From NCBI GenBank assembly GCA_937129145.1, contig CAKZMU010000009.1:80551-144550 (forward strand): 64,000 nucleotides of DNA, in the 5' to 3' direction. The stretch is from an uncultured Lacinutrix sp. (GTDB lineage: Bacteria > Bacteroidota > Bacteroidia > Flavobacteriales > Flavobacteriaceae). Of the stretch, positions 29,502 to 30,988 are shown in pieces. The first letter of the stretch is position 1, and the number at the start of each line of letters is the position of its first letter. Made by a program: the position numbers and the translations under genes. The notes below the pieces were generated by a model. It was not told where the DNA came from. It did no database searches and worked only from the letters and a program-made list of their open reading frames with translations.

Positions 29502-29526
29502 ATCGGCAATCTTGTCTTGCCGATTT
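29502..29526 (+). terminator. Hairpin (weak terminator) between the TPR gene and the tRNA array
   Basis: ATCGGCAAtcttgtcTTGCCGAT followed by tt. Confidence 0.4.
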
Positions 29527-29529
29527 AAT

Positions 29530-29613
29530 GGGAACTCGTCAACGTTGGAGAGTTGGTGCAGATTGTAAACCTGTTGCTTAAATGCTAAGAAAGTTCGAAT
29601 CTTTCAGTTCCCA
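29530..29613 (+). tRNA. tRNA-Tyr(GTA), class II (long variable arm)
   Basis: Acceptor GGGAACT/AGTTCCC, anticodon loop ttGTAaa, variable stem-loop cttaAATGCtaag, T-arm GAAAGttcgaatCTTTC; one A·C mismatch in the anticodon stem. Confidence 0.7.
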
Positions 29614-29627
29614 CAAATAAATAGATT

Positions 29628-29700
29628 GACAAGGTGGCTGAACGGTTAAGGCAACAGACTGCAAATCTGTTTTTTGTGAGTTCAAATCTCACCCTTGTCT
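29628..29700 (+). tRNA. tRNA-Cys(GCA)
   Basis: Acceptor GACAAGG/CCTTGTC, anticodon arm ACAGActGCAaaTCTGT, T-arm GTGAGttcaaatCTCAC. Confidence 0.85.
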
Positions 29701-29706
29701 CAAAAT

Positions 29707-29779
29707 AGTATCGTAGCTCAATGGCTAGAGCGCTCGGTTGTCTCCCGAGAAGTTGCGGGTTCGAATCTCGTCGGTACTG
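29707..29779 (+). tRNA. tRNA-Asp(GTC), noncanonical (A1:U72, U37)
   Basis: Acceptor AGTATCG/CGGTACT, D arm GCTCaatggctaGAGC, anticodon arm CTCGGttGTCtcCCGAG, T-arm GCGGGttcgaatCTCGT. Confidence 0.65.
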
Positions 29780-29780
29780 C

Positions 29781-29844
29781 GAAGCAGTTTAAGAGATGAG
29801 AAGTTTACCCTGAGCGTAGTCGAAGGGAATCTTGTCGGTACTGC
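29781..29844 (+). repeat. 46-nt conserved spacer module (…AAGAGATGAGAAGTTTAccCTGAGCGtAGTCGAAGg) followed by an 18-nt direct repeat (17/18 identical) of the tRNA-Asp T-loop-to-3'-end segment
   Basis: gaatctCgtcggtactgc at 29763–29780 recurs as gaatctTgtcggtactgc at 29827–29844; the intervening module is ~85–90% identical to the one at 30183–30226. Confidence 0.8.
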
Positions 29845-29848
29845 AAAT

Positions 29849-29931
29849 CTGGGAGGATAATCCCGAAGGTTCGGGAGTGGTTTACTCGCTTTGGAAGCGA
29901 GAGGTTGTAGGTTCAAATCCTACCTCTCAGA
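29849..29931 (+). tRNA. tRNA-Pro(TGG)-like gene with an aberrant 29-nt D region; possibly a pseudogene
   Basis: Acceptor CTGGGAG/CTCTCAG (one G·U pair), perfect anticodon arm CTCGCttTGGaaGCGAG, perfect T arm GTAGGttcaaatCCTAC. The D region is ~10 nt too long and contains the hairpin TCCCGAaggtTCGGGA. Confidence 0.45.
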
Positions 29932-29937
29932 CAAAAT

Positions 29938-30009
29938 ACTCCGTTAGTCAAATGGCTAAGACGCCTGACTTTCTATCAGGAATTAAGGGTTCAATTCCCT
30001 TACGGAGTA
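29938..30009 (+). tRNA. tRNA-Glu(TTC), noncanonical (A1:U72, U37)
   Basis: Acceptor ACTCCGT/ACGGAGT, anticodon arm CCTGActTTCtaTCAGG, T arm AAGGGttcaattCCCTT. Confidence 0.65.
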
Positions 30010-30014
30010 CACAT

Positions 30015-30100
30015 TGAGATATAGCTTAATTGGTAGAGCGTCGCTCTCATAAGGCGAATGGTTTAGGTTCTCCCGATAGTTATCGGGACTAATATCTCAA
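30015..30100 (+). tRNA. tRNA-Met/Ile2(CAT)-like gene with an 18-nt hairpin insertion in the T loop; possibly a pseudogene
   Basis: Acceptor TGAGATA/TATCTCA, D arm GCTTaattggtaGAGC, anticodon arm TCGCTctCATaaGGCGA. The T region is TTAG-gttc-[TCCCGATAgtTATCGGGA]-CTAA. Confidence 0.45.
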
Positions 30101-30106
30101 CAACAC

Positions 30107-30179
30107 GCAGGAATGGCGAAACGGCAAACGCACTCGACTTAGAATCGAGAAACTGGGAGTTCGAATCTCTCTTCCTGTA
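30107..30179 (+). tRNA. Class-I (short variable arm) tRNA with Leu anticodon TAG
   Basis: Acceptor GCAGGAA/TTCCTGT, D arm GCGaaacggcaaaCGC, anticodon arm CTCGActTAGaaTCGAG, variable region aaact, T arm GGGAGttcgaatCTCTC, A73. Confidence 0.55.
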
Positions 30180-30182
30180 CGA

Positions 30183-30246
30183 AGTAAGGAAAGAGATGAG
30201 AAGTTTATGCTGAGCGAAGTCGAAGTGAATCTCTCTTCCTGTACGA
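30183..30246 (+). repeat. 44-nt conserved spacer module followed by a perfect 20-nt direct repeat of the upstream tRNA's T-loop-to-3'-end segment
   Basis: gaatctctcttcctgtacga at 30163–30182 and again at 30227–30246; the module agtaaggaAAGAGATGAGAAGTTTAtgCTGAGCGaAGTCGAAGt is homologous to 29781–29826. Confidence 0.85.
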
Positions 30247-30247
30247 T

Positions 30248-30321
30248 GCTCCACTAGCCCAAATGGAAGAGGCAACAGTTTTAAGCGCTGTTAAGTCCAA
30301 GTTCGAATCTTGGGTGGAGTA
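30248..30321 (+). tRNA. Class-I tRNA with Leu anticodon TAA
   Basis: Acceptor GCTCCAC/GTGGAGT (G1·U72), anticodon arm ACAGTttTAAgcGCTGT, variable region taagt, T arm CCAAGttcgaatCTTGG, A73. Confidence 0.5.
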
Positions 30322-30327
30322 CAAAAT

Positions 30328-30451
30328 AAGCTTATGGTGTAATGGAAAGCACACAAGGTTTAGCTCATGCATATCTATTTCAAGAAATAGGTATTCGTGA
30401 ATGCAAAGCATTTCGAACCTTGGAGTATGGGTTCAAGTCCTATTAAGCTTA
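30328..30451 (+). tRNA. 124-nt tRNA-like gene carrying a ~52-nt structured insertion in the anticodon loop
   Basis: Acceptor AAGCTTA/TAAGCTT, D arm GTGTaatggaaaGCAC, anticodon stem CAAGG…CCTTG separated by 59 nt, T arm ATGGGttcaagtCCTAT. Mature anticodon TAG if spliced at 37/38, TCG if at 33/34. Confidence 0.45.
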
Positions 30452-30456
30452 CAAAA

Positions 30457-30527
30457 TAACCTGTGGTGTAACGGTAACACTCAAGATTTTGATTCTTGTA
30501 TTATAGGTTCGAATCCTATCAGGTTAT
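30457..30527 (+). tRNA. tRNA-Gln(TTG)
   Basis: U1:A72 acceptor TAACCTG/CAGGTTA, D arm GTGTaacggtaACAC, anticodon arm CAAGAttTTGatTCTTG, T arm ATAGGttcgaatCCTAT. Confidence 0.8.
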
Positions 30528-30535
30528 CAAAAAAT

Positions 30536-30608
30536 GGAACAGTAGCAAAGTTGGTCAATGCGTCGGACTGAAAATCTGAAAATACAGGTTCAATTCCTGT
30601 CTGTTCCA
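30536..30608 (+). tRNA. tRNA-Phe(GAA)
   Basis: Acceptor GGAACAG/CTGTTCC, anticodon arm TCGGActGAAaaTCTGA, T arm ACAGGttcaattCCTGT. Confidence 0.85.
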
Positions 30609-30621
30609 CTAAAATTAAAGA

Positions 30622-30639
30622 TTCCTGCCTATGCAGGAA
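30622..30639 (+). other. Perfect 7-bp hairpin TTCCTGCctatGCAGGAA inside the array; the agattcctgc motif recurs at 31045–31056
   Basis: Inverted repeat read directly; no T-tract follows, so it is not a canonical terminator. Confidence 0.4.
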
Positions 30640-30767
30640 ATAATATCAAGCTGGTCTTGTTGAGTGTTTCGGTATAGCACTATTGTATAAATCGTTGCAG
30701 AAATGCATCATGAGTTTATGTTCAACTAGACTTGAAGGTTTTGACTGTTAACCAAAAAATGGTCTCC

Positions 30768-30843
30768 CCCTATAGGTCGTGGGTTCGACTCCCACTTATC
30801 CCAATTGGGATAGTAGTTCAGTGGTTAGAACAATAGGATGTAG
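30768..30843 (+). tRNA. Apparently circularly permuted tRNA gene: 3' half (nt 38–73), 3-nt linker, then 5' half (nt 1–37); the mature anticodon would be GTA
   Basis: 3' half: c-CCTAT-aggtc-GTGGGttcgactCCCAC-TTATCCC-a. Linker att. 5' half: GGGATAG-ta-GTTCagtggttaGAAC-a-ATAGG-atGTAg. The acceptor pairs over 7 bp and the anticodon stem ATAGG/CCTAT pairs over 5 bp. Confidence 0.45.
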
Positions 30844-30888
30844 GTGTTGCTGGTTCGATTCCAGTCGTTTGCTTGGAGAAATTCCTTG

Positions 30889-30948
30889 GCAATAGTAGCT
30901 CAATTGGTAGAGCACTGCACTTTTAATGCAGGTTTGGACTCAAAATCC
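30889..30948 (+). pseudogene. Truncated tRNA-Lys(TTT)-like 5' portion with a degenerate T arm and no 3' acceptor strand
   Basis: GCAATAG-ta-GCTCaattggtaGAGC-a-CTGCActTTTaaTGCAG-gttt, then only a 3-bp GGA/TCC stem; no complementary 3' acceptor strand nearby. Confidence 0.4.
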
Positions 30949-30988
30949 ACAATCAAAAGCCCATCATCTTTTAAAACTGATGACCAAC

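Follow-up and report, generated by a model that had tools for sequence, protein, structure and literature searches.

Two tRNA genes followed by probable minimal copies of a widespread tRNA-3'-end insertion cassette

Several kinds of element are known from the ends of tRNA genes. Integrative islands and CIMEs that target tRNA insert at the 3' part of the gene, are bounded by a direct repeat from the T loop and leave an intact tRNA in place. The element that we describe here does likewise but differs from them in that it carries no integrase, sits at at least 27 tRNA types, has a folded insert of 50-120 nt and keeps one fixed junction, at tRNA position 58. T4 SegB, found in a tRNA gene cluster, and I-TevI are GIY-YIG homing endonucleases. 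As with the genes of such enzymes, whether free-standing or intron-borne, the family considered here includes a small nuclease gene in or next to a tRNA, ORF-bearing and ORF-less copies, and filled and empty alleles; however, the protein of our cassette comprises ~90-100 aa without a recognisable DNA-binding domain, and its gene sits in a hairpin loop that is followed by a conserved module and a duplicate of the tRNA end. This protein, too, may act in homing.

Group I introns, which may carry an endonuclease ORF in a peripheral loop, are likewise structured RNAs at conserved RNA-gene sites that tolerate an ORF in a hairpin loop, and a P1-like helix with target sequence in the cassette recalls their internal guide sequence. 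The cassette is nevertheless far smaller (~45-110 nt, with 64 nt at the present sites), gives no Intron_gpI match and lacks the P1-P9 core of ~200 nt or more; because an intact tRNA copy precedes the element, splicing is not required. MITEs such as Correia and RPE are likewise short, non-coding and multicopy, in some cases with hairpin arms, and derive from longer ORF-bearing elements, whereas the present family combines cross-phylum conservation, RNA-type covariation, strict orientation with the tRNA strand and a long repeat taken from the target, of which one junction is fixed. Theta and HDV-like ribozymes adjoin tRNA 3' ends in gut phages (PMC10879173) and are compact conserved RNAs directly downstream of tRNA, as our element is, with a role at the tRNA 3' end conceivable; our element differs from theta ribozymes in that it lacks an HDV-like double pseudoknot and matches no Rfam ribozyme, in the near absence of its family from viral contigs, and in the tRNA-end duplicate behind its module, a feature that theta ribozymes do without. 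Literature searches on the core sequence, on GIY-YIG with tRNA, on UPF0213/YhbQ and on Patescibacteria yielded no description of the element, and the widespread insertion cassette is apparently undescribed.

Two sites behind tRNA-Asp and tRNA-Leu(UAG)

Within the 64-kb window, that is, the whole stretch of DNA analysed, the ~35-nt module AAGAGATGAGAAGTTTAnnCTGAGCGnAGTCGAAG occurs at 29791-29825 and 30191-30225 (two pattern matches against none expected from 100 shuffles); it lies 14 nt after both tRNA-Asp and tRNA-Leu(UAG), and the insert measures 64 nt in each case. Both module sites are covered by a 53-nt repeat of 83% identity at a spacing of exactly 400 nt, as found by repeat search, and a covariance model trained on 115 members of the family recovered just these two sites in the window, at 71.5 and 68.8 bits, with the next best match at 11.7 bits. 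The start-to-start spacing of the tRNA end repeats is 64 nt at Asp and at Leu. The earlier note had read each site as a module followed by a copy of the host tRNA from the T loop to the 3' end, and as a discrete mini-element at two different tRNA genes, flanked by repeats of each gene's own 3' end. The sequence is as claimed on both points, and the start in the T loop is borne out as well, both copies beginning at position 58.

The first host gene, tRNA-Asp(GTC), lies on the forward strand, as do all features of the two sites, at 29707..29780 (end 29779/80; ARAGORN, with an Rfam tRNA score of 58.3 bits). Its positions 58-74, AATCTCGTCGGTACTGC, constitute copy a of the repeat (29764-29780, from repeat comparison), and over the longer span 29763-29783 versus 29827-29847 the end repeat is identical at 19 of 21 positions, or 16 of 17 counted from A58. 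The linker GAAGCAGTTTAAGA (29781..29794), delimited by sequence inspection, P1 covariation over 115 members and the minimum-free-energy fold, reverse-complements the tRNA 3' end imperfectly, and here GCAGT is matched with ACTGC and TAAGA with TCTTG; its 3' part is the 5' strand of helix P1, and the minimum-free-energy fold contains both P1 and the GCAGU/ACUGC pairing. The conserved module itself, placed by pattern and covariance-model matches at 29795..29827, consists of a GA that closes P1, J1/2 UGAGAAGUUUA (29797-29807), the P2 5' strand CCCU (29808-29811), the P2 loop GAGCGUAGUCGA (29812-29823) and the P2 3' strand AGGG (29824-29827). Copy b of positions 58-74, AATCTTGTCGGTACTGC, follows at 29828..29844, as determined by repeat comparison and against loci L059, L075 and L089; in it A58 and A59 are unpaired and 29830-29836 forms the P1 3' strand. 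A C63-to-T change in this copy improves the pairing with the linker and recurs in L075, while the mismatch is kept in L059. We count this change, matched as it is to the linker, as a probable sign of selection on P1.

The second host is a 74-nt tRNA-Leu(TAG)-type gene without a long variable arm (30107..30180, end 30179/80; ARAGORN and Rfam tRNA), whose positions 58-74 correspond to 30164-30180. Its linker GAAGTAAGGAAAGA (30181..30194; sequence, covariance model and minimum-free-energy fold) pairs GTA with TAC and AGGAA-AGAGA with TCTCT-C-TTCCT, and its module (30195..30227; pattern and covariance model, 71.5 bits) has UGCU/AGUG as P2, so that both strands differ from the Asp-site copy while pairing is preserved. 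Copy b, AATCTCTCTTCCTGTAC, lies at 30228..30244 (repeat comparison), and its identity runs on for 4 nt up to 30248; the end repeat (30164-30184 versus 30228-30248) is thus identical at 17 of 17 positions from A58 and covers 21 nt altogether. The tiny GAA-loop hairpin noticed earlier at the tRNA ends is real, but it is the tip of the longer imperfect complementarity between the 14-nt linker and all of the tRNA 3' end, which is equally the downstream copy. By contrast, the gagaagtt shared with the tRNA-Asp variable region proved coincidental, since GAGAAGUU belongs to the module behind every tRNA type.

In window-type copies the linker additionally pairs with the acceptor strand, which gives a minihelix-like rod starting 3-4 nt past the tRNA, and the minimum-free-energy fold of tRNA plus element takes its acceptor stem from the second copy. 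The thermodynamic z-scores of the window copies alone are weak (-1.1 to -1.3); we base the case for a structure on covariation and not on folding energy.

A family joined to tRNA 3' ends at position 58

A 22-nt core pattern matches 113 genome stretches and at least 120 metagenome stretches, mostly from Bacteroidota and Patescibacteria. The hosts comprise at least 27 tRNA anticodon types, and in every case the module lies on the tRNA strand and meets position 58 of a duplicate of the upstream tRNA's 3' end; it is not, as had been considered, a generic spacer repeat unconnected with tRNA ends. The other end of the repeat varies, the left end of the duplication falling behind position 74, a few nucleotides beyond CCA, or behind the terminator. 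The flanking repeat, typically 17 bp, ranges from 17 to 74 nt and has only one precise junction. The 17-nt tail is repeated upstream in 91 of 116 genome instances and, among the matches listed in the combined set, in 136 of 178 non-redundant instances, 124 of these 136 lying behind a TTCR T-loop. Many Flavobacteriia have a terminator between tRNA and module, and in Flavobacteriia copy b comes without CCA.

Tandem units occur, as do several copies per genome at unrelated tRNAs. Among the carriers are the cultivable strains Dokdonia pacifica DSM 25597 (L112), Winogradskyella poriferorum JCM 12885 (L059) and Maribacter spongiicola DSM 25233 (L113). Alignment of L034 with L079, L112 and L108 reveals a clean 65-66 nt indel at tRNA-Asp, and empty Leu(UAG) sites in L098 and L065 complete a comparison in which filled and empty alleles both exist. 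The insertion part of the earlier att-like interpretation therefore stands, related genomes with the same tRNA types lacking the element. Orthologous copies are present at tRNA-Asp and tRNA-Leu(UAG) in several flavobacterial genera; these sit at the same tRNAs as the window copies, and we regard the two window copies as probably old, retained and non-autonomous and not as recent duplicates of each other. An origin in a mobile vector was rejected, as neither the plasmid nor the phage collections gave BLAST matches to the element, the strict pattern was found in 0 viral contigs, and only 2 of 48 loose-pattern matches in viral contigs were real.

The idea that the duplication extends further, unnoticed, on the upstream side of the module was also rejected, in that identity there is limited to what P1 pairing needs; the identity of the linker to the tRNA is random upstream of ~position 48/49, and the copy never reaches 5' of the T-stem. 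The second full tRNA downstream that would have pointed to a partial deletion of tandem genes is not there: the copy begins at position 58 in every parsed case, and more than 170 copies among the matches listed contain no full second tRNA.

Module structure and a nuclease gene in longer forms

As covariation shows, the module forms an RNA-type rod, P1-P2-(P3), with the linker clamped onto the duplicate's T-stem 3' strand in P1 and with the order P1 – UGAGAAGUUUA – P2 – GAGCG[N or hairpin]AGUCGA. Across the 115 members P2 is 99.8% paired, with CG, UG, UA, GC, GU and AU as compensatory pair types; P1, the helix between linker and duplicate, is 65-100% paired across its 7 bp, and none of 500 shuffles reached the observed covariation score. 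P2 contains 45 G·U and 0 A·C, and the abundance of the former together with the absence of the latter indicates a single-stranded structure of the sense strand and not a protein site on duplex DNA. One fixed point of the module accommodates a variable hairpin, and the acceptor-strand pairing of the window copies is missing in most members, where columns 11-13 are near random. The junction geometry is constant in more than 170 copies among the matches listed, with P2, two unpaired nucleotides (A58, N59) and a following 7-bp helix, the 5' strand of which differs from one target tRNA to another. L062, L063 and L071 belong to a single P3 lineage; their host tRNAs differ, and the guide strand fits the host in each case. 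Conservation of the core is partly imposed by the search pattern; AGUCGAA, the part free of that constraint, is 97-100% conserved (its U at 78%).

Part of this arrangement is probably contained in a described RNA. The Rfam sX4 model (RF02223) consists of tRNA-Ser, ~60 nt and 'GGGGGGUGAGA', i.e. the P1 5' strand and the first module bases; it scores 40.7 bits at L021, and its window matches reach 15.5 bits against a gathering threshold of 70. Both dRNA-seq and northern blot have revealed sX4 as an sRNA of Xanthomonas (PMC3300014). Its model, which stops before the module, probably represents the 5' portion of a single member of the family; sX4 was not interpreted as a tRNA-end cassette. A BTnc231 match was discarded as due to the terminator alone.

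Longer forms of the element hold a gene for a ~95-aa (90-100 aa) GIY-YIG nuclease in a hairpin between tRNA and module. Such an ORF lies between tRNA and module in five loci (L110, L029, L092, L003 and L254), and the proteins match PF01541 with E values of 1e-16 to 1e-18. When the comparison was started from the protein, all four independent GIY-YIG homologues examined had a covariance-model match, to a module variant, at the stop codon, and in the same four a tRNA or tRNA 3' end was followed by the conserved left arm. A further GIY-YIG example comes from Flavobacterium. The full cassette reads tRNA | left arm CTTCGRCARGCTCAG – GIY-YIG gene – right arm CUGAG..YCGAAG – linker – module | copy of positions 58-74 or more. 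Its left arm and the arms of the module core are reverse complements; the Leu copy of L079 carries CTGAGCTTGCCGAAG, which reverse-complements the left arm exactly. The left and right arms co-vary (CTCAG/CTGAG becoming CTCAC/GTGAG).

The GIY-YIG protein is a catalytic domain without a recognisable DNA-binding domain, and it is the sole protein recurrently embedded in longer versions. Other conserved neighbours (integrases, a serine recombinase, a Xer-like gene, RtcB, TPR and Band7) were set aside as lineage-specific synteny or separate islands, and the family flanks contain neither an associated reverse transcriptase nor a recurrent transposase. Among the matches listed, only ~3% of canonical modules have the gene between tRNA and module; no GIY-YIG gene was found in the 64-kb window, and the window copies are also without the hairpin. 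Given these frequencies, the nuclease may have invaded an already existing RNA element secondarily instead of being its engine. Its sequence is 35-70% conserved across phyla, as against ~95% for the core.

Origin of the cassette

We consider it reasonably probable that both window sites are minimal copies of a widespread tRNA-3'-end insertion cassette that have lost gene and hairpin. Most family copies would have lost the gene and left the hairpin, and the window copies would have lost the hairpin too, keeping 'C GAAG', linker and module. The cassette may spread by nuclease-promoted, homology-dependent repair, in a homing-like manner, at the T-loop and 3' end of tRNA genes, the duplication preserving an intact tRNA as in tRNA-targeting islands. 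If the cassette is co-transcribed with the tRNA, P1 could sequester the displaced 3' fragment and so keep it from competing for the tRNA 5' half, and the invariant core (UGAGAAGUUUA, GAGCG..AGUCGA) could be a cis-acting RNA site for propagation or processing. Cleavage, transcription and mobility of the cassette are all predictions from sequence. Several points weigh against this account. Plain homing alone does not account for the colonisation of new tRNA types, where the duplicate is perfect and the P1 strand fits; the nuclease gene accompanies few canonical modules and is missing from the window; and a core more conserved than the nuclease implies a universal partner, which we do not name, or an intrinsic RNA activity. 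A strand re-matched for each tRNA, a fixed junction at position 58 and a core conserved beyond the protein would all be accounted for if the module were the scaffold of a new RNA-directed system for tRNA genes, either a small T-loop-attacking ribozyme acting at 57|58 with the variable P1 5' strand as internal guide or a guide RNA for the GIY-YIG protein, in which case it would give a ~95-aa catalytic domain specificity for the T-stem and 3' end of a chosen tRNA gene; we regard such a scaffold as decidedly unlikely.

If the insertion cassette is real, hundreds of genomes of Bacteroidota and Patescibacteria carry behind their tRNA genes a compact, highly conserved RNA-type element that annotation has missed. 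It would explain many 'partial tRNA' fragments and odd tRNA trailers, give context to the abundant mini GIY-YIG proteins beside tRNAs that have no assigned function, and offer a tractable system for how selfish cassettes colonise essential RNA genes without harm, while indel-level strain typing of tRNA arrays would gain a practical marker. Either source of the cross-phylum conservation of the core, a universal partner or an intrinsic activity, would be new biology.

The element might instead be a domesticated ncRNA of tRNA operons that is useful to the host, with the GIY-YIG gene an occasional parasite of its hairpin; module and duplicated 3' end would then form a mimic of the tRNA top half or a conformational switch, active in precursor processing (for example as a surrogate RNase P or RNase Z site just behind the tRNA) or in quality control. 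A core that is near-identical across phyla and kept without any ORF fits this proposal, as do the orthologues at tRNA-Asp and tRNA-Leu(UAG) in several flavobacterial genera, the compensatory change in copy b, the window-type pairing of linker and acceptor with a fold that uses the second copy for the acceptor stem, and the expression of sX4. We nonetheless judge it unlikely, given that presence and absence differ among close relatives, that tandem arrays and multiple copies per genome occur at unrelated tRNAs, that most members lack the acceptor-strand pairing and that a terminator separates tRNA and module in many Flavobacteriia. The constant junction geometry in the more than 170 copies among the matches listed, the invariant core (a feature of small ribozymes), the one P3 lineage at different tRNAs with a guide strand matched each time, the left repeat end that is often a plausible transcript 3' end (position 74/CCA or the terminator end) and an sX4 3' end that falls inside J1/2 would also suit a new small ribozyme, self-cleaving/ligating or reverse-splicing-like, with its reactive phosphate at module|A58 and with P1, made of guide strand and T-stem 3' strand, as substrate helix, the duplicated tRNA end being the trace of an attack on the T loop at the level of RNA. 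However, Rfam 15 returned only tRNA, partial sX4 and noise, and no ribozyme, for the window region (E <=10) and for eight family loci (E <=1); the topology is by eye unlike the HDV-like, hammerhead, twister, pistol, hatchet and hairpin folds, the nested P1>P2>P3 rod lacking on inspection the pseudoknots or three-way junctions of known small self-cleaving ribozymes, twister-sister among them; no reverse transcriptase, which an RNA-level event requires to become fixed in DNA, is associated; and a copy b without CCA in Flavobacteriia was not copied from mature tRNA. A ribozyme of this kind is in our view improbable.

We also accord little probability to a MITE-like DNA transposon with subterminal inverted repeats (CTTCGRC..GCTCAG in the left arm and CTGAGC..GYCGAAG in the module core), a long target duplication of tRNA 58-74, a transposase acting in trans and GIY-YIG as cargo or nicking subunit. 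The inverse complementarity of the left arm to the core arms, exact in the L079 Leu copy, the co-varying arms and the typical 17-bp flanking repeat speak for it, but window-type copies lack the left arm and yet occur at several tRNAs with matched linkers, the repeat varies between 17 and 74 nt with a single precise junction, P2 covariation indicates a single-stranded structure of the sense strand, and the flanks show no recurrent transposase. The insertion cassette also accounts for the sites better than the tyrosine-integrase att pair, CIME or excision scar of ~45 nt that the earlier note had in mind; this attL/attR remnant, together with a partial deletion of tandem tRNA genes, is very improbable. 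Its repeats do start in the T loop, the classical crossover region of integrases, and tyrosine integrases are found near the module in five flavobacterial tRNA-Leu loci. Those integrases, however, flank a different, longer partial tRNA-Leu repeat (anticodon loop to 3' end), upstream and on the opposite strand, and no integrase is present in the window or adjacent to the module. That one module follows at least 27 anticodon types, with a separate duplicate for each, is beyond the reach of an att core. The spacer is a folded, covarying structure and not leftover arm DNA, and the copy never extends 5' of the T-stem.

Hand threading onto the hammerhead, HDV-like, hairpin-ribozyme and K-turn/T-box Stem I folds failed for all of them on strand topology. 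At the level of words there are likenesses, between GAUGAGAAG and the T-box K-turn strand and between AGAAGU..ACC and the hairpin ribozyme.

Two copies of a folded module behind tRNA-Asp and tRNA-Leu(TAG)

The window is low in GC (about 33-37%) and comes from a chromosome of flavobacterial type, on which its tRNA array is flanked by RecJ, OsmC, TPR, Band7, UDG and TK genes. Within this array, a conserved module of about 35 nt (AAGAGATGAGAAGTTTAnnCTGAGCGnAGTCGAAG) starts 14 nt past each of two genes, tRNA-Asp(GTC) at 29707-29780, which hosts the first copy, and the 74-nt tRNA-Leu(TAG) at 30107-30180, which hosts the second; its pattern gives two matches in the window versus 0 expected. The pair forms a direct repeat of 53 nt with 83% identity and a spacing of exactly 400 nt. 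Behind each module lies a duplicate (copy b) of the host tRNA's own positions 58-74 (copy a): the Asp 3'-end repeat matches 29763-29783 to 29827-29847 (90% identity, spacing 64 nt), and the Leu repeat, also spaced by 64 nt, is identical at 17 of 17 positions counted from A58. These data bear out the earlier note's description of a discrete module repeated after both genes and followed each time by that gene's own T-loop-to-3' end. A covariance model run over the whole 64 kb window found only these two sites (71.5 and 68.8 bits), the third-ranked match scoring 11.7 bits.

An alignment of 115 distinct copies (A1) defines the anatomy of the element. It starts with the 5' strand of helix P1, formed between the 14-nt linker and the T-stem 3' strand (about 5 variable nt plus GA), followed by UGAGAAGUUUA and the 5' strand of helix P2 within the module (NNCU); continues with GAGCG, then either one nucleotide or an A-hairpin-G of 6-45 nt, then AGUCGA; and ends with the P2 3' strand AGNN, at times preceded by one extra nucleotide, and A58 N59. 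The tail contributes the P1 3' strand (U60 C61 plus the T-stem 3' strand) and then the acceptor 3' strand. The search pattern itself makes the first 22 core nucleotides invariant; in the half outside that pattern, AGUCGAA is 97-100% conserved except for its U at 78%, A58 is conserved at 98%, and model matches outside the pattern exhibit limited core variation (e.g. GACGAG, GGCGAG, GAUAAG and CUGAGU).

P2 is paired in 99.8% of cases in A1, with compensatory changes at two of its four pairs (CG/UG/UA/GC and CG/GU/AU/UA/UG), and each of the seven P1 pairs is 65-100% paired through many pair types. In 500 column shuffles the observed covariation score was never reached, and it drops sharply in slid registers. 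The window copies themselves differ on both P2 strands (CCCU/AGGG vs UGCU/AGUG) with pairing kept, and copy b of the window Asp site and of L075, a related stretch, carries a C63-to-T change that pairs with the linker. The presence of 45 G·U versus 0 A·C in P2 indicates that selection acts on the helix in a single-stranded molecule of the sense strand, which would most simply be a tRNA co-transcript. P2 is CCC at Asp copies and begins with U at Leu copies, and the two window copies are each closer to same-tRNA copies in other genera than to one another; the window insertions are old and retained.

A cross-phylum family specific for tRNA 3' ends

The window copies are members of a large family that crosses phyla. 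A search with an exact core pattern of 22 nt, 20 of its bases specified, matched 113 stretches in one-genome-per-species contigs, and more than 120 metagenome stretches are among the matches listed. Bacteroidota hosts in the genome set are mostly Flavobacteriales (Maribacter, Winogradskyella, Dokdonia, Leeuwenhoekiella, Tenacibaculum, Gillisia and Flavobacterium), with further hosts in Saprospiraceae, Rikenellaceae and Crocinitomicaceae; the same set includes one Chlorobiota MAG. Many hosts are Patescibacteria/CPR (Peribacteria, Microgenomates lineages, Saccharibacteria and Absconditabacterales), and others are, by label, Gammaproteobacteria MAGs and one Nanoarchaeia MAG. The family is essentially absent from mobile vectors: against viral contigs, the strict core pattern gave no matches and two of 48 matches to a loose pattern were genuine, and BLAST against phage and plasmid collections returned none. 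Literature searches found no description of the element.

We searched for the 17 nt after each module up to 1.5 kb upstream, allowing at most two mismatches. Among the matches listed, this tail recurs upstream in 136 of 178 non-redundant copies, 124 of the 136 having it directly behind a TTCR T-loop. The module is not a generic spacer repeat. Host tRNAs cover at least 27 anticodon types. The right junction always joins the module to A58, and the repeat's left end is variable and lies past position 74 (the window type), past an encoded CCA plus a few nucleotides, or past the terminator, so that repeats are 17 to 74 nt long. At CPR loci with a CCA-encoding tRNA (e.g. L110, L022, L046 and L055), the full CCA stands after copy b and copy a has N73-C-(A/C)-CTTCG in its place, which puts the left junction inside the encoded CCA, past position 74. 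The element inserts as a cassette specifically at tRNA 3' ends and has an RNA-type folded terminal module and one junction fixed at position 58.

Its alleles are polymorphic. Dokdonia L034, with the same tRNA-Asp type, has its flank directly behind the tRNA and no insert, L079 and L112 carry 65-66 nt between tRNA-Asp and an L034-type flank (alignment A2), and tRNA-Leu(UAG) sites are empty in L098 and L065. At the 'empty' sites of L065 (Tenacibaculum; 61-190 and 689-820), AAGTAAGGA is kept directly behind the tRNA; this matches the first 9 nt of the filled-site linker, folds into a hairpin together with the acceptor strand, and could be either what a deletion left behind or a hairpin that preceded insertion. 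Tandem units are common, and so are genomes that hold several copies at different tRNAs.

The earlier note had proposed an integrase scar, a reading that does not hold: the window contains no integrase, and five flavobacterial tRNA-Leu loci that do have one nearby carry a separate island at the tRNA that the cassette also uses. At these loci (L005, L007, L039, L094 and L095), a tyrosine-integrase gene lies -290 to -1500 upstream of the module on the opposite strand, at a fixed distance from it, and adjoins a partial tRNA-Leu that spans the anticodon loop through the 3' end; the repeat near these integrases is a different, longer partial-tRNA repeat. Nor is the element a decayed tandem tRNA gene: the linker resembles its own tRNA's T-stem 5' strand (identity 0.92, 0.86, 0.62, 0.51, then random) only to the extent that pairing needs, so no longer tRNA duplicate is concealed there. 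Known ribozymes and group I introns were likewise rejected, as a scan of Rfam 15 found no family covering the module.

An optional GIY-YIG gene and a possible route of spread

An all-against-all comparison of flank ORFs yielded one recurrent small protein, at 14 loci, which is a GIY-YIG catalytic domain (PF01541, E 1e-16 to 1e-18). The ORF for this protein, of ~90-100 aa, lies between tRNA and module in L110, L029, L092, L003 and L254, where the layout runs tRNA, (A/C)CTTCGGCAGGCTCAGTGC, ORF, GCACTGAGTTTGTCGAAG, linker, module and tRNA from position 58 onward. The arms flanking the ORF pair and co-vary (CTCAG/CTGAG to CTCAC/GTGAG), placing the gene in a hairpin; it is optional, being present in only about 3% of canonical modules among the matches listed, and none was found in the window. 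The module core is a paralogue of the right arm and an inverted counterpart of the left one, whose exact reverse complement is present in the Leu copy of L079. Spacer lengths among the matches listed cluster at ~14 nt (24 copies, window included), 45-60 nt (71) and 60-80 nt (23). The common 45-60-nt spacers are simply the arm hairpin minus the ORF, and the 'C GAAG' of the window would be the remainder if the hairpin were also removed. A protein-side search returned 188 GIY-YIG homologues; all four independent homologues examined have a same-strand model match overlapping or just past the stop codon and, downstream of a tRNA (Asn, Ser) or tRNA 3' end, the conserved left arm. In a Flavobacterium MAG, the GIY-YIG gene precedes a CCCUGAG-hairpin-UCGAAGGG variant.

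The element is probably a homing-type or miniature mobile cassette. It would spread by nuclease-promoted, homology-dependent repair at the T-loop and 3' end of tRNA genes, the duplicate preserving a whole tRNA upstream of the insert, and breaks in a filled locus could add tandem units or delete the insert via the repeats. The cassette may be co-transcribed with the tRNA, as hinted by its invariably shared orientation with the tRNA, the G·U pattern in P2 and Xanthomonas sX4, an RNA detected by dRNA-seq and northern blot (PMC3300014). The Rfam model of sX4 stops at the first bases of a module. P1 may sequester the displaced 3' fragment; in the fold predicted without P1, the second copy takes the acceptor 5' strand and the linker takes the first copy. 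Simple homing leaves the perfect duplicate of each new tRNA and the matched P1 strand unexplained, and for this reason we retain ribozyme or guide and transposon readings; RNA-directed targeting of tRNA genes, which would be categorically new, has a modest chance. The closest kinds are tRNA-targeting islands, GIY-YIG homing genes, group I introns with loop ORFs, MITEs and the theta ribozymes behind phage tRNAs, with each of which the cassette has some logic in common while missing one defining feature.

The remainder of the tRNA array

The tRNA cluster at 29520-30960 is a decayed version of a ~17-20-tRNA array; the full form, which has the same TPR and Band7/SPFH neighbours and gaps of 4-8 nt between tRNAs, is present in Winogradskyella, Leeuwenhoekiella, Tenacibaculum and Dokdonia. 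ARAGORN calls only 7 members in the window, several others being broken or insert-bearing. A second type of mini-insertion, a palindromic 16-18-nt hairpin (TCCCGA..TCGGGA; two matches versus 0 expected), lies at 29861-29876 within a tRNA-Pro(UGG)-like gene (about 29846-29931), in its D-loop, and at 30071-30088 within a tRNA-Met(CAT)-like gene (about 30015-30100), in its T-loop; both genes are missed by ARAGORN and reach only 30-36 bits with Rfam. A further tRNA-like gene at 30326-30452 (aagcttatggtgtaatgg ... ggttcaagtcctattaagctt), called as tRNA by neither tool, has a ~60 nt insertion in its anticodon-loop region. The distal array end (30734-30835) has tmRNA-like (23 bits) and YrlA-like (33 bits) matches and a tRNA-like 3' end (ggttcgactcccac), all below gathering scores.

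Bacterial tRNA-Leu normally has a long variable arm. The 'tRNA-Leu' genes at 30107-30180 (UAG) and 30248-30322 (UAA) are 74-75 nt long and lack this arm, as do the short UAG and UAA genes of related arrays, so their amino-acid identity is uncertain. Two genes found adjoining the array in relatives, neither of them in the window, encode an RtcB-type RNA ligase (L048, L059, L075 and L098) and a YkuK/DUF458-like protein (these four plus L049 and L065), and such neighbours may be relevant to arrays rich in interrupted tRNAs.
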